Origin: Dehalococcoidia bacterium
GTDB lineage: Bacteria > Chloroflexota > Dehalococcoidia > Lucifugimonadales > UBA2985
DNA length: 64,000 bases
Assembly: GCA_965219025.1 (NCBI GenBank)
Contig: OZ244716.1
Span: 7,812-71,811, forward strand
Direction: 5' to 3'
Position numbers and translations under genes: made by a program. Positions within the stretch are counted from its first letter, which is position 1, and each line of letters starts with the position of its first letter. The notes beneath the pieces are model-generated. The model saw nothing but the letters and a program-made list of their open reading frames with translations, was not told the DNA's origin and searched no databases. Positions 10,140-15,267 of this stretch are shown here, piece after piece.

Positions 10140-10646
10140 GTGGCCAGCGGAGAAAGCATCAGAGAGCGAATAAGCGGCGCTCTGGCCGGTCAATCGGCCA
10201 GGACGATAACTGTTCTCTCCTCGCTTCTTGCCATAGAGGACGAGTTGGGCTACATTCCTCCTCCGGCCATCGAGCAGGTGGCCAGCTTCACAGGCTCCAC
10301 AATCAACGACGTGTGGGGCGTGGCGTCCTTCTACACCAACTTCCGCTTTACGCCACCGGGCGAGCACGTTGTGGAGCTGTGCTGGGGGCCCACCTGTCAC
10401 CTGCTGGGCGCACAGCAGATAATCCAGGCCGCGCTCCAGTCGCTTGGCCTCGACGAGGAGGGTGACACGGCGGACGGCAAAATCTCGCTCAAGTACAACA
10501 CCTGCCTGGGCGCCTGCTCGCAGGGCCCGGTTATTAGCGTGGACCACAAGATTATCGGCCCGCAATCTCTCGGCACAACCGGAGGCGAGGCGATGAGCGA
10601 GCGCGTGGCCGAGTTGGTGTCCCGGCTGAGAAACGGGACGTCCTGA
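10140..10646 (+). CDS. nuoE: NuoE/HydC-like [2Fe-2S] subunit
   Basis: CWGPTCH...CLGACSQGP thioredoxin-like 2Fe-2S motif; VASFYTNF. GTG start after GGAGA is preferred to 10095. Confidence 0.85.
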   Translation: MASGESIRERISGALAGQSARTITVLSSLLAIEDELGYIPPPAIEQVASFTGSTINDVWGVASFYTNFRFTPPGEHVVELCWGPTCHLLGAQQIIQAALQSLGLDEEGDTADGKISLKYNTCLGACSQGPVISVDHKIIGPQSLGTTGGEAMSERVAELVSRLRNGTS

Positions 10647-10657
10647 GCGGAGTGAGC

Positions 10658-12403: not shown

Positions 12404-12411
12404 GGAGAGCC

Positions 12412-15267
12412 ATGGCCTCTGCGATTACGGTTGTCATCGACGGGAAAGAGATAGTCACCCAGCCGGGTAAGACCATCATCCAGGCGGCCATGGATTCGGG
12501 ACTCTACATCCCGTATCTCTGCTACTACCCCGGCATGAAGCCGTTCGGGGCCTGCCGGATGTGCGTGGTCGAAGTCGAGAACGCCCGTGGCACCCCTGCG
12601 TCCTGCACGACGCCCGTAGCCGACGGCATGGTCGTGAACACCAACACGCCGCAGATCCAGGACCTCCGCAAGGGCATCACGGAGCTCATCATCTCCGAGC
12701 ATCCCCACGGCTGCCTCACTTGCCATCGCACCGACCTTTACGGCGCCGACCTGTGCGGGCCGGAGGACATCTGCCAGCGTCACGTGTCCGTCACCGACCG
12801 GTGCGTGGCCTGCCCCAAGAACGAGAGATGCGAGCTCAAGGACACCACGATCTACGTGGGCACCGGCCTGACCACGCCGCTCACGTACAAGTACCGCGAC
12901 CTTCCCGTAGTCACACAGGACCCCTTCTACGACATGGACTACAACCTCTGCATCGTGTGTGGACGGTGCGTACGCGCCTGCGAGGAGATCCGCGGGGACA
13001 GCGCCATCACGTTTACGGAGCGGTCGGGCATTTCGCTTGTTGGCCCCGCGCAGGGCACGTCGTTGCTGGAGTCAGGCTGCGAGTTCTGCGGCTCCTGCAT
13101 TGACGTTTGTCCCGTAGGAGCGCTAGTGGAGTCCTCGTTCAAGTGGGAGAAGGCTGTTGACACGGTCTCCACCACGTGCCCGCACTGCCCGGTGGGCTGC
13201 CAGCTGAAGCTGGAGGTCAACCGGAGGGGCAGGGTCATTCGCGCCATACCTGACCTGGAGGCCGAGGCAAACAGGGGCCAGGCCTGCTTCAAGGGCAAGT
13301 TCGGCCTGGAATTCGTCAACAGCCGCAGCAGGCTCAGAAACCCGTTGATCAGGCGGAACGGAGTGCTTGAGGAGGCGTCCTGGGAAGAGGCGATCTCACT
13401 CGTGGCAGAGAAGCTCGGAGAGTATAGGGGCGACTCCTTCGCCGCCATTGCTTCCTACCGCGGCACCAACGAAGAGAACTACCTGCTGCAGAAGTTCGCG
13501 CGCACGGTCATGGCCACCAACAACGTTGACCACGCCTCCAACCTGAAGCCGGAGCTAGCGAGGCCGCTGCAGGACGCTCTGGGGTACCAGGCCGCGACCA
13601 ACCCCGTGTGGGACCTGGACAACGCGGGCTGCATACTCACGGTGAGCACCAACGTCACCGAGGAGCACAACGTGGCCGCGGTGCCCGTCAAGCGGGCAGT
13701 GCAGAACGGCGCCAAGCTCGTCGTTATAGACCCGCGAGAGGTAGAGCTGACTCGCTACGCAACCGTATGGGTCCGGCCTAGGCCGGGCACCGAAGCCACG
13801 CTGATTGGCGGCATGCTGCGCGTAATCTCAGACGAGGTGCTGGAGGACCAGGAGTTCCTGCGAGACCGGTGCGAGAACCTGGACAGCCTCAAGAACTCGC
13901 TTTGGCGATTTGACATCAGCCGCGTGGAGGCTGTGACGGGCGTACCTCAGGAGGACATTCGCATTGCGGCCCGAACGTTCGCTGGCAACGGCCCCGCTGC
14001 CATCCTATACGCGCTGGACACCGTACCGGCGTCGGAGAGGGAAGCGTGCGTAAACGCAATCCTGGACCTCGCTCTCCTCACGGGCAACGTGGGCAGGCCT
14101 CACAGCGGCCTCTATCCGCTACGGCCGGGCACCAACGACCAGGGCTCGTGGGACGTGGGCTGCGTGCCGGACCTGTTGCCGGGCTACCGCTTGGTGGACG
14201 ACGCAGACGCGCGTTCGGTTCTGGGCGAGACGTGGGGCTCTGAGCCTCCGGCCGGCGAAGGGATTGGCGTACTCGATGCTTTTGACGCCGCATCCGATGG
14301 CCGCGTGAAGGCGATGATGGTGATCGGGGACAGCGCGTCCTACCACAGCGGCGAGCTGGGCAACGTTCTGGCCGCGGCCGGCAACCTCGAGTTCCTTGTG
14401 GTGCAGGACACCTTCCTCACCGGCCTGGCACAGGCTGCCCACGTGGTGCTGCCCTCAGGCACCTTCGCCGAGAAGGAGGGCACGTACACCAACCTCGAGC
14501 GCCGCGTGCAGCCCCTCAGGAAGGTCCTTGAAGTGCGCAACTCGAACGCCATGCCCGACTGGTGGATCGTCTGCGAGATCGCCAAGGCGATGGGCGCCCG
14601 GGGCTTCGACTATCACTGCCCGGCGCAGATACTCGACGAGATCTCCCGCGTGGTGCCAATGTACGCAGGCGTCGCTTACCAGCGGCTGCTCGCACGAGAG
14701 TCCGTTCTGCAACCGGTCTCGATGCCGAGCTACCCGCTTCCAAGCCAGCTGCTGCCCGCAACCGGCGGCCAGAACGCAGGCGTGCAGTGGCCCTGCACAT
14801 CGGCGGACGACGATGGCACGCCAATCCTCTACGGAGACCAGTTCGTTGCGGGCAAGGCGCACTTCATCCCATTGGAGATCAGAGAAGCGCCGGCCATGCC
14901 CACCACGGACGACTTTCCGCTGCTGCTGCTTCCGGGCCGGGTGCTGCACCAGTCGCAGCGGGAGCTGGATATCGTGCTGGTGGGGCAGAAGAACCGGATC
15001 CAAAGCGAGGAGACGCTCTGCATGCACCCCTCGGACGCGTCCGCGCTGGACGTGGCGGAGGGCGACGTGGTGGAGGTTATCTCCGCACGGGAGAGCATCC
15101 TCGCCAGGGCTTCGCTAACTGAGCTGAACCTGCCCGGCACGGTGTCAGTTACCTATCTCTTCGGCAACCTCATGACACAGCTGGAGAGCAGCGAGGACCC
15201 GGATGCAATGTCGCACGTGCCCGGCCTTCCGCTCACGCCCGTCAGGCTTGCGAAGGCAGAGGCCTAG
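12412..15267 (+). CDS. NuoG/formate-dehydrogenase-alpha-like Fe-S protein, molybdopterin-oxidoreductase fold, lacking the catalytic Cys/Sec
   Basis: 2Fe-2S (C..GACRMC..SC), His/Cys cluster, 2x[4Fe-4S] (CIVCGRCVRAC, CEFCGSCIDVC), CPHCPVGC..C. The active-site segment reads DHASNLKPE instead of D.CAR.(C/U)H. Confidence 0.8.
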   Translation: MASAITVVIDGKEIVTQPGKTIIQAAMDSGLYIPYLCYYPGMKPFGACRMCVVEVENARGTPASCTTPVADGMVVNTNTPQIQDLRKGITELIISEHPHGCLTCHRTDLYGADLCGPEDICQRHVSVTDRCVACPKNERCELKDTTIYVGTGLTTPLTYKYRDLPVVTQDPFYDMDYNLCIVCGRCVRACEEIRGDSAITFTERSGISLVGPAQGTSLLESGCEFCGSCIDVCPVGALVESSFKWEKAVDTVSTTCPHCPVGCQLKLEVNRRGRVIRAIPDLEAEANRGQACFKGKFGLEFVNSRSRLRNPLIRRNGVLEEASWEEAISLVAEKLGEYRGDSFAAIASYRGTNEENYLLQKFARTVMATNNVDHASNLKPELARPLQDALGYQAATNPVWDLDNAGCILTVSTNVTEEHNVAAVPVKRAVQNGAKLVVIDPREVELTRYATVWVRPRPGTEATLIGGMLRVISDEVLEDQEFLRDRCENLDSLKNSLWRFDISRVEAVTGVPQEDIRIAARTFAGNGPAAILYALDTVPASEREACVNAILDLALLTGNVGRPHSGLYPLRPGTNDQGSWDVGCVPDLLPGYRLVDDADARSVLGETWGSEPPAGEGIGVLDAFDAASDGRVKAMMVIGDSASYHSGELGNVLAAAGNLEFLVVQDTFLTGLAQAAHVVLPSGTFAEKEGTYTNLERRVQPLRKVLEVRNSNAMPDWWIVCEIAKAMGARGFDYHCPAQILDEISRVVPMYAGVAYQRLLARESVLQPVSMPSYPLPSQLLPATGGQNAGVQWPCTSADDDGTPILYGDQFVAGKAHFIPLEIREAPAMPTTDDFPLLLLPGRVLHQSQRELDIVLVGQKNRIQSEETLCMHPSDASALDVAEGDVVEVISARESILARASLTELNLPGTVSVTYLFGNLMTQLESSEDPDAMSHVPGLPLTPVRLAKAEA

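Follow-up and report, generated by a model that had tools for sequence, protein, structure and literature searches.

Three described systems stand closest to the locus considered here. The NAD-linked formate dehydrogenases (FDHs) of the FdsGBA(D) type, from Rhodobacter capsulatus and Cupriavidus necator (structures 6TG9/6TGA and 6VW7), are encoded in the order gamma, beta, alpha. The N-module of complex I, NuoE/NuoF/NuoG (Nqo2/Nqo1/Nqo3), comprises three subunit types, the largest of which is homologous to FDH but has no metal ligand, and in some bacteria nuoEFG is already known to lie apart from nuoA-N. The third system is the Bfu family (HydABC, NfnABC, StnABC; Caldicellulosiruptor NfnABC, 9BOV/9BP5), whose defining feature is the C-terminal B3/B4 domain of the B subunit, the electron route to ferredoxin (PMC9304861; PMC11829005). 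Here we analyze a set of three genes (hereafter, the trio), coding for E-like, F-like and G-like proteins, at positions 10140–15267 of a 64,000-nucleotide stretch of DNA from a Dehalococcoidia bacterium (contig OZ244716.1; hereafter, the window). The trio appears to be N-module-like or diaphorase-like in its working; it lies below the curated NuoEFG and FdsGBA thresholds and lacks the feature that defines Bfu enzymes. As far as the alignments go, both the NADH/FMN site and the complete Fe-S chain are intact, and the formate site is evidently disabled, with the Mo-ligand Cys and the catalytic His both replaced. Homologues of FDH without the cofactor are already known (NuoG, NfnA). What is new is that an FdsA-like A subunit is combined with a Bfu-B subunit devoid of the C-terminal domain, that an insertion is present at the N5-type cluster, and that this arrangement is distributed across a bacterial class.

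The three genes are located on the forward strand, separated by gaps of 5 and 8 bp, and form the stand-alone set that the first-pass annotation of the window had described. The gene for the E-like protein (NuoE/FdsG/BfuC type; 10140..10646) encodes 168 aa with a match to PF01257 (2Fe-2S_thioredx, E = 2.7e-31). Its start is most likely the GTG at 10140, with GGAGA at 10131–10135, 4 nt upstream; the mechanical open reading frame (ORF) opens earlier, at 10095. Four Cys that are invariant in 71 relatives should be the ligands of one predicted [2Fe-2S] cluster. The gene for the F-like flavoprotein (10652..12403; 583 aa; Pfam Complex1_51K, SLBB and NADH_4Fe-4S) is predicted to contribute the NADH/FMN site and an N3-type [4Fe-4S] cluster. 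The gene for the G-like protein (12412..15267; 951 aa) encodes a homologue of the FdsA-type FDH alpha subunit that lacks both the Mo-ligand Cys and the catalytic His and in which the Fer2_4, NADH-G_4Fe-4S_3, Fer4_Nqo3, Molybdop_Fe4S4, Molybdopterin and Molydop_binding domains are recognized. Each of the three proteins scores under every NCBIfam equivalog cut-off, including, unlike the complex I N-module, those for NuoE, NuoF and NuoG.

The G-like protein has more than 7000 homologues with E below 1e-30, and a scan of one genome per species yields at least 595 relatives. The locus counts given throughout refer to a retained set of 80 of these, all from Dehalococcoidia, Chloroflexota or SAR202 metagenome-assembled genomes and 52–92% identical to the protein from the window. 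In 78 of the 80 loci, tblastn places the E, F and G genes on one strand in that order, and both exceptions are at contig ends. The synteny extends beyond the trio and is class-wide: DUF2298, a PMT_2 glycosyltransferase, LPG_synthase_TM and an amine-oxidase-type flavoprotein, followed by E, F, G, mutS and mutL. In the window, mutS lies 156 bp downstream of the G-like gene, and mutL comes further on. Judged by these comparisons, the trio family is conserved across the class Dehalococcoidia, and this family-wide conservation rules out a pseudogene or a decaying gene. A literature search for a description of the family returned only general remarks on separate nuoEFG operons.

Among solved structures, the best matches of the G-like protein are 9wxb_B (E = 1.9e-162) and R. 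capsulatus FdsA (6tg9_A, E = 2.7e-158), both of them FdsA chains of Rhodobacter enzymes, and the alignment to these FDH chains runs end to end (E ~1e-160). The complex I NuoG chains reach 150–220 bits, with only the Fe-S part aligned. Neither curated profile is satisfied: the protein scores 561.1 bits against TIGR01591 (Fdh-alpha), where the cut-off is 666.25, and 310.8 bits against TIGR01973 (NuoG), where it is 470.05. An AlphaFold2 model built from a 17-sequence alignment has a mean pLDDT of 62.7 and falls below 50 in the Fe-S region, so that it is informative for the fold of the pterin-type domains only; in a Foldseek search, this predicted fold is closest to the NAD-dependent FDHs RaFDH and RcFDH (the R. 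capsulatus enzyme; E ~1e-55), with weaker matches to NuoG (E ~1e-35).

Every Fe-S ligand of FdsA is kept in the G-like protein, in five motifs that follow one another on the forward strand. The N1b/A5-type [2Fe-2S] domain (12421..12648; PF13510) contributes C37, C48, C51 and C65, all invariant in an alignment of 17 sequences with 57–76% identity to the window protein; the N5/A4-type motif (12700..12831) contributes H97, C101, C104 and C140; two [4Fe-4S] motifs of the N4/A3 and A2 types (12928..13125; PF22117, PF12838) contribute C180, C183, C186 and C190, and C223, C226, C229 and C233, all of which align with Cys of FdsA; and the proximal motif (A1/FS0; 13162..13323; PF04879) contributes C256, C259, C263 and C292. 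The proximal motif is accompanied, as in FdsA, by a Lys (K294), which is present in 120 of the 121 family members compared. The ligands of the N1b, N4 and N5 clusters are thus present and the Mo ligand is absent, as in NuoG, and in the trio as a whole the FMN, N3, N1a, N1b, N4 and N5 ligand sets of the N-module are represented. Unlike NuoG, in which they are lost, the trio also keeps the A2 cluster and most of the FDH-invariant residues. The G-like protein accordingly looks like an intermediate between FDH and NuoG, with the Fe-S chain and most FDH motifs kept and the catalytic residues lost.

Where FdsA has NNTDTCARVCHSP, the G-like protein has NNVDHASNLKPE (aa 370–381; 13519..13554, +), and in the alignment anchored on NNVD, Lys379 occupies the position of the Mo ligand (Cys or SeCys; Cys386 in FdsA) and Pro380 that of the catalytic His387. 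Alignment to FdsA (6tg9_A) hence bears out two claims of the first-pass annotation, namely that the 951-aa subunit retains all Fe-S motifs and that it has neither the Mo ligand nor the catalytic His. The replacement is a property of the family: the motif NNVDxxS[N/D]x[R/K]P[E/D] is found in all 120 of the closest homologues. Across the 121 members, position 379 is Arg in 79, Lys in 28, Gln in 7, Cys in 4, Thr in 2 and His in 1, and position 380 is Pro in 120. The four proteins with a Cys at the old ligand position (P0041, P0070, P0101 and P0105; ...TCPE) have Pro, not His, as the next residue. The window protein does retain an equivalent of the catalytic Arg, on which the first-pass annotation is silent: R571 in the loop YPLRPGTNDQG (14113..14145, +; from the FdsA alignment). 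The GQN.V residues that follow it are changed; in the family, the Arg position is not fixed (Arg in 92 members, Phe in 13, Tyr in 7 and Ile in 5, the last three amounting to ~20%). That the ligand site is occupied by a variable, mostly basic residue and that the catalytic Arg is dispensable both speak against formate oxidation. More broadly, among representatives at 50% identity, only 32 of 150 carry the canonical Cys-His and Arg motifs, so that FDH-like proteins without the Cys are apparently common in sequence space.

The cap domain (domain IV; 14920..15168, +) matches PF01568 with E = 3e-12 over 82 of 110 profile positions and contains the motif PGRVLHQSQRE (14932–14964; aa 841–851), which the first-pass annotation had taken for a degenerate C-terminal cofactor motif. 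It does depart from the TTGRILSQYNV of FdsA but is conserved in its own right within the family (G842, R843, L845, Q847 and R850), so that the term fits it in part.

The second distinctive feature of the G-like protein, overlooked in the first-pass annotation, adjoins the N5-type cluster. Here ~25 residues with four additional Cys interrupt the motif H-x3-C-x2-C-x5-C, to give H97-x3-C101-x2-C104 ... C115 ... C121 ... C131-x2-C134-x5-C140. In the representative alignment, the insertion proper spans aa 105–130 (12724..12801, +) and is absent from FdsA, NuoG and the solved structures; it has no matching sequence in the PDB, and PDB alignments pass over residues 106–130. All eight residues are invariant in the 17-sequence alignment, and with 58% invariant columns the N5 region including the insertion is one of the protein's most strongly conserved regions. 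Eight potential ligands would suffice for two clusters, the second of which may be bound by the insertion. Many further FDH-like proteins of Chloroflexota also carry the insertion, including a few that still have the Cys-His pair, and in a crude neighbor-joining tree of the pterin domain, not robust enough for dating or counting the losses, the family groups with other insertion-bearing Chloroflexota proteins that have lost the Cys.

The location of this insertion bears on the path of the electrons. Electrons of complex I pass through N5 as the final NuoG cluster on their way to NuoI, so that an undescribed Cys-rich insertion is found at the very cluster from which complex I hands on electrons. 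The matching A4 cluster of RcFDH is not on the electron path to Mo but at the interface of the dimer (PMC7171172), and in that enzyme the motif is not interrupted. Taken together, the position of A4 off the Mo route and the exit through N5 in complex I suggest that the working electron port of this family would be at N5 rather than at the dead pterin site.

The F-like protein has its best solved relatives among the B subunits of the Bfu family: Caldicellulosiruptor NfnB (9bov_B, 543 bits), NiFe-HydB (526), archaeal NfnB (518) and StnB (515), with 7t2r_B, 9n5u_B and 8oh5_B among the matches. The scores against FeFe-HydB (435–488 bits), FdsB (335–377) and NuoF (~327) are lower. The label ‘NuoEFG-like’ given to the trio in the first pass is therefore too simple: the G-like protein fails both the NuoG and the Fdh-alpha cut-offs, and the F-like protein is nearer to Bfu B subunits than to NuoF (543 versus ~327 bits) and, unlike FdsGBA, nearer to Bfu B than to FdsB. 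The N-terminal thioredoxin-fold domain of the F-like protein (10727..11041, +), which aligns with the N-terminal domain of Caldicellulosiruptor (Csac) NfnB, is shared with the Bfu family and with the beta subunit of FdsGBA and is missing in NuoF (PMC7171172). Its C35, C66 and C70 are conserved in 58–61 of 65 relatives; the equivalent domain of Csac NfnB harbors a Zn site (B5) with three Cys and one Glu as ligands (PMC11829005). C461, C473, C554, C559, H526 and H548 are conserved as well and may include ligands of a B2-type site (three Cys and one His). The E-like protein, too, has the C1-type [2Fe-2S] Cys of the Bfu enzymes.

The likeness to the Bfu family stops short of its defining part. The alignment of the F-like protein with 9bov_B halts at residue 525 of 584, and the C-terminal tail (12296..12400, +) ends 24 residues past CPTGQC, with no B3/B4 domain. 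The median length in the family is 582 aa, so that this domain is missing family-wide and the gene in the window is not specifically truncated. Without the B3/B4 domain, no route to ferredoxin and therefore no bifurcation is expected: the module should be a non-bifurcating one, derived from, or sister to, the Bfu enzymes. The G-like protein also differs from the A subunits of this family, in that it has no GltD/NfnL-type NADPH domain and its FDH-like domain is full-length, not truncated. A likeness remains, however: in NfnA, the pterin site of the FDH-like part is incomplete and no pterin density is seen there (PMC11829005), a solved precedent for an FDH remnant without pterin.

On this evidence, we tentatively favor, at somewhat short of an even chance, a reading of the trio as a cytoplasmic, non-bifurcating NADH dehydrogenase module that arose from an NAD-linked Bfu-type FDH, does not oxidize formate and has the 11-subunit complex I as its most likely acceptor. 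NADH would reduce the FMN of the F-like subunit; the electrons would reach the N5-type cluster of the G-like subunit via N3, N1b and N4 and would leave through the second cluster held by the four-Cys insertion, away from the dead pterin site. The acceptor would be the 11-subunit complex-I-like enzyme of Dehalococcoidia, on which the trio would most plausibly dock as a separately encoded, independently recruited N-module. This enzyme is ranked first among the possible partners for four reasons. Dehalococcoidia genomes encode an 11-subunit nuo set without NuoEFG (PMC4959651), a point made in the first-pass annotation that holds for the published genomes; a Chloroflexi genome combines an 11-subunit Nuo with a separate nuoEFG operon (PMC5736913); Bfu-type ABC modules occur in nuo operons and are predicted to be input modules of complex I (PMC9304861); and the organism appears to have a respiratory chain. 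The last point comes from an Alternative Complex III operon in the window (21888–28947, +), a sign of quinone-based respiration, and the organism looks like an aerobe with a respiratory metabolism. For Dehalococcoidia with a ‘headless’ complex I, the trio would be the obvious candidate for NADH entry into the respiratory chain.

Several observations weigh against this reading. Neither in the window nor in the 80 loci and 8 further contexts does the trio have an adjoining nuo gene, which also sets it apart from the complex I N-module. The G-like protein is nearer to FDH than to any NuoG, both by sequence and by predicted fold. The second cluster rests on ligand counting, in a region where the structure model has pLDDT below 50, and the insertion is located where NuoG would face NuoI, so that it might block the canonical docking instead of aiding it. 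A related Chloroflexi genome has NuoEF genes and no membrane complex I (PMC3971608). Finally, the genes next to the trio in most relatives and next to some distant G-like genes point to a different partner, as discussed below. The evolutionary extension of the favored reading, namely that aerobic Dehalococcoidia gave the ancestral 11-subunit complex I an NADH input independently of NuoEFG, through a disabled Bfu-type FDH-like enzyme to which an extra Fe-S cluster was added next to N5 to act as the adaptor, is a possibility that we regard as rather doubtful; if true, it would provide a living second instance of the presumed step of N-module acquisition in the history of complex I.

The different partner suggested by the neighboring genes is an FAD protein. 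In 63 of the 80 loci, the G-like gene is directly followed, on the same strand and after a median gap of 67 bp, by a gene for a ~255-aa Fpr-like protein (for example, L073:13001-13768, +). This protein has the PF00970 and PF00175 domains, is of the ferredoxin/flavodoxin-NADP reductase type and finds its best PDB match in E. coli Fpr (1fdr). The first-pass account of the neighborhood of the trio had missed this gene, which is absent from the window and its closest clade. The trio could then be a soluble NAD(H)/NADP(H) redox hub in which electrons move between the NADH/FMN site and NADP(H)/Fpr, the insertion serves as a ferredoxin-like docking cluster, and the whole operates as a non-bifurcating transhydrogenase or as an entry point for NADPH. 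NADP-type flavoproteins also follow related, distant G-like genes that bear the insertion: NfnA-like and NfnB-like genes lie after those of P0133 and P0135, the F-like protein at the P0135 locus is fused to a GltD-like domain, and downstream of the P0126 gene are a GltD-like gene and a cytochrome b/Rieske cluster. Other relatives occur in bare E-F-G or E-G sets. There are solved precedents in NfnABC and Stn for an FDH/NuoG-like scaffold that joins NADPH and NADH sites (PMC11829005, PMC10482914).

Against such a hub stands, apart from the missing Fpr-like gene in the window and its closest clade, the synteny of the whole neighborhood: mutS adjoins the set equally often (64 of the 80 loci), so that adjacency of the Fpr-like gene is weak evidence of a functional link. 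We know of no fusion or co-purification of the two partners, and an uncoupled transhydrogenase would run only downhill, from NADPH to NAD+. On balance, a hub of this kind seems unlikely. Under the evolutionary extension of the favored reading, the Fpr-like protein might be an added entry point for NADPH. Two gene orders among the distant relatives are worth recording as such: E, an F-like/GltD-like fusion (900 aa), G with the Cys-His pair, NfnA-like and NfnB-like at L082:7245-15062, and CcmE, G, GltD-like, cytochrome b, Rieske and cytochrome c at L083:6866-14834.

The remaining serious alternative is that the G-like protein is still a Mo/W-bis-pterin enzyme, in which the metal either has no protein ligand or has acquired a shifted one (Ser376 or Asn/Asp377), and which oxidizes formate or another substrate with NAD+. 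A Mo-pterin center without a protein ligand is found in arsenite oxidase. The candidate shifted ligands, three and two residues ahead of the old ligand position, are well conserved (Ser376 in 114 of the 121 members, Asn/Asp377 in 120), four members have the Cys at position 379, the proximal cluster and Lys294 are retained, and the predicted fold is closer to FDH than to NuoG. With 32 representatives of bona fide FDHs as the reference, 90 positions of the pterin domains show a conservation of 90% or more, and the G-like protein keeps 70 of them. Furthermore, TNEExYLxQK, VIDPR, NxQGxxD and EKEGTYTNLERR are near-invariant across the 121 members; these we take, from knowledge of the family and not from a structure, to be pterin-binding or nucleotide-binding motifs. 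Given their persistence, the loss of the cofactor cannot be read from sequence alone.

Several observations speak against a working pterin enzyme. The 20 changed FDH-invariant positions are concentrated at the active site and in the cap, and the cap is the least conserved domain, with 14% invariant columns against 21% in the pterin domains. The ligand position itself varies (Arg, Lys, Gln, Cys, Thr, His) and is followed by a Pro that is all but invariant, and the catalytic Arg gives way to Phe, Tyr or Ile in about one-fifth of the members. The accessory genes are not there either: unlike the loci of FdsGBA(D), that of the trio has no fdsC or fdsD, and no fdhD/fdsC, fdsD or molybdenum cofactor (Moco) genes are found in the window or among the recurrent neighbors in the 80 loci. 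Pfam scans of the ~46 ORFs across the 64 kb detect no fdhD, Moco-synthesis, hydrogenase, or membrane or Q-module nuo genes, in agreement with the first-pass statement that no fdhD, Moco, hydrogenase or membrane nuo genes are adjacent. A search of the whole 64 kb against Rfam at gathering thresholds returns nothing, that is, no Moco riboswitch and no tRNA or other known RNA gene. An active pterin enzyme is therefore, in our estimate, improbable. That the trio is a true electron-bifurcating Bfu enzyme that reduces ferredoxin is extremely improbable and is rejected, notwithstanding the similarity of the F-like protein to bifurcating B subunits, the retained [2Fe-2S] cluster of the E-like protein and the conserved Cys/His candidates for both NfnB Zn sites, because the B3/B4 domain, the route to ferredoxin, is missing family-wide and the organism, with its Alternative Complex III operon, looks aerobic and respiratory.

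The status of the G-like protein matters for the annotation of marine genomes. The first-pass annotation had warned that such proteins are easily mislabeled as FDH, and this is indeed the case: the JGI names of P0009, P0010 and P0021 are formate dehydrogenase. Papers on SAR202 cite formate dehydrogenase as evidence of C1 oxidation (PMC5395668, PMC5864207). Should those calls be based on members of this family, the case for formate oxidation in a very abundant ocean lineage would have to be re-checked.

The rest of the window includes several other genes and regions of note. Apart from the Alternative Complex III operon, the trio has housekeeping genes as neighbors. The Alternative Complex III operon consists, on the forward strand, of genes for a multihaem cytochrome c (21888–22559), an ActB-like protein with a twin-arginine (TAT) signal and a pterin-type domain (22563–24833), which is the second molybdoenzyme-like protein in the window, a 4Fe-4S protein (24868–25635), a 451-aa product with no Pfam match (25628–26983), an NrfD-type membrane subunit (27027–28403) and ActD (28420–28947). 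Upstream of the trio and syntenic with it, positions 7–6892 (+) encode the DUF2298 membrane protein, the PMT_2 glycosyltransferase, LPG_synthase_TM and the flavoprotein of the amine-oxidase/phytoene-desaturase type; this four-gene set looks like a conserved cluster for cell-envelope or lipid modification. Between this set and the trio lies a patch of lower G+C content (8000–10100; 0.58 compared with ~0.64 elsewhere) that contains two DUF1801 paralogues (8144–8608, −; 9164–9613, +) and short ORFs without a family. One of the ORFs in this patch (9624–10076, −; 150 aa) was suspected from the look of the peptide to be a transposase fragment; it has no Pfam family, and the suggestion was dropped. 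A scan for promoters and terminators around the trio operon gave counts close to the shuffled expectation.

Further downstream, a 645-aa ORF (46073–48010, +) has no Pfam family and a third-position G+C content of 0.69, compared with 0.8–0.88 in its neighbors. The 60–62 kb region is also low in G+C (0.565). At the end of the window (61177–63994, −), a HerA-type helicase (DUF87, HAS-barrel) adjoins a NurA-domain nuclease, a pairing that is better known from archaea.

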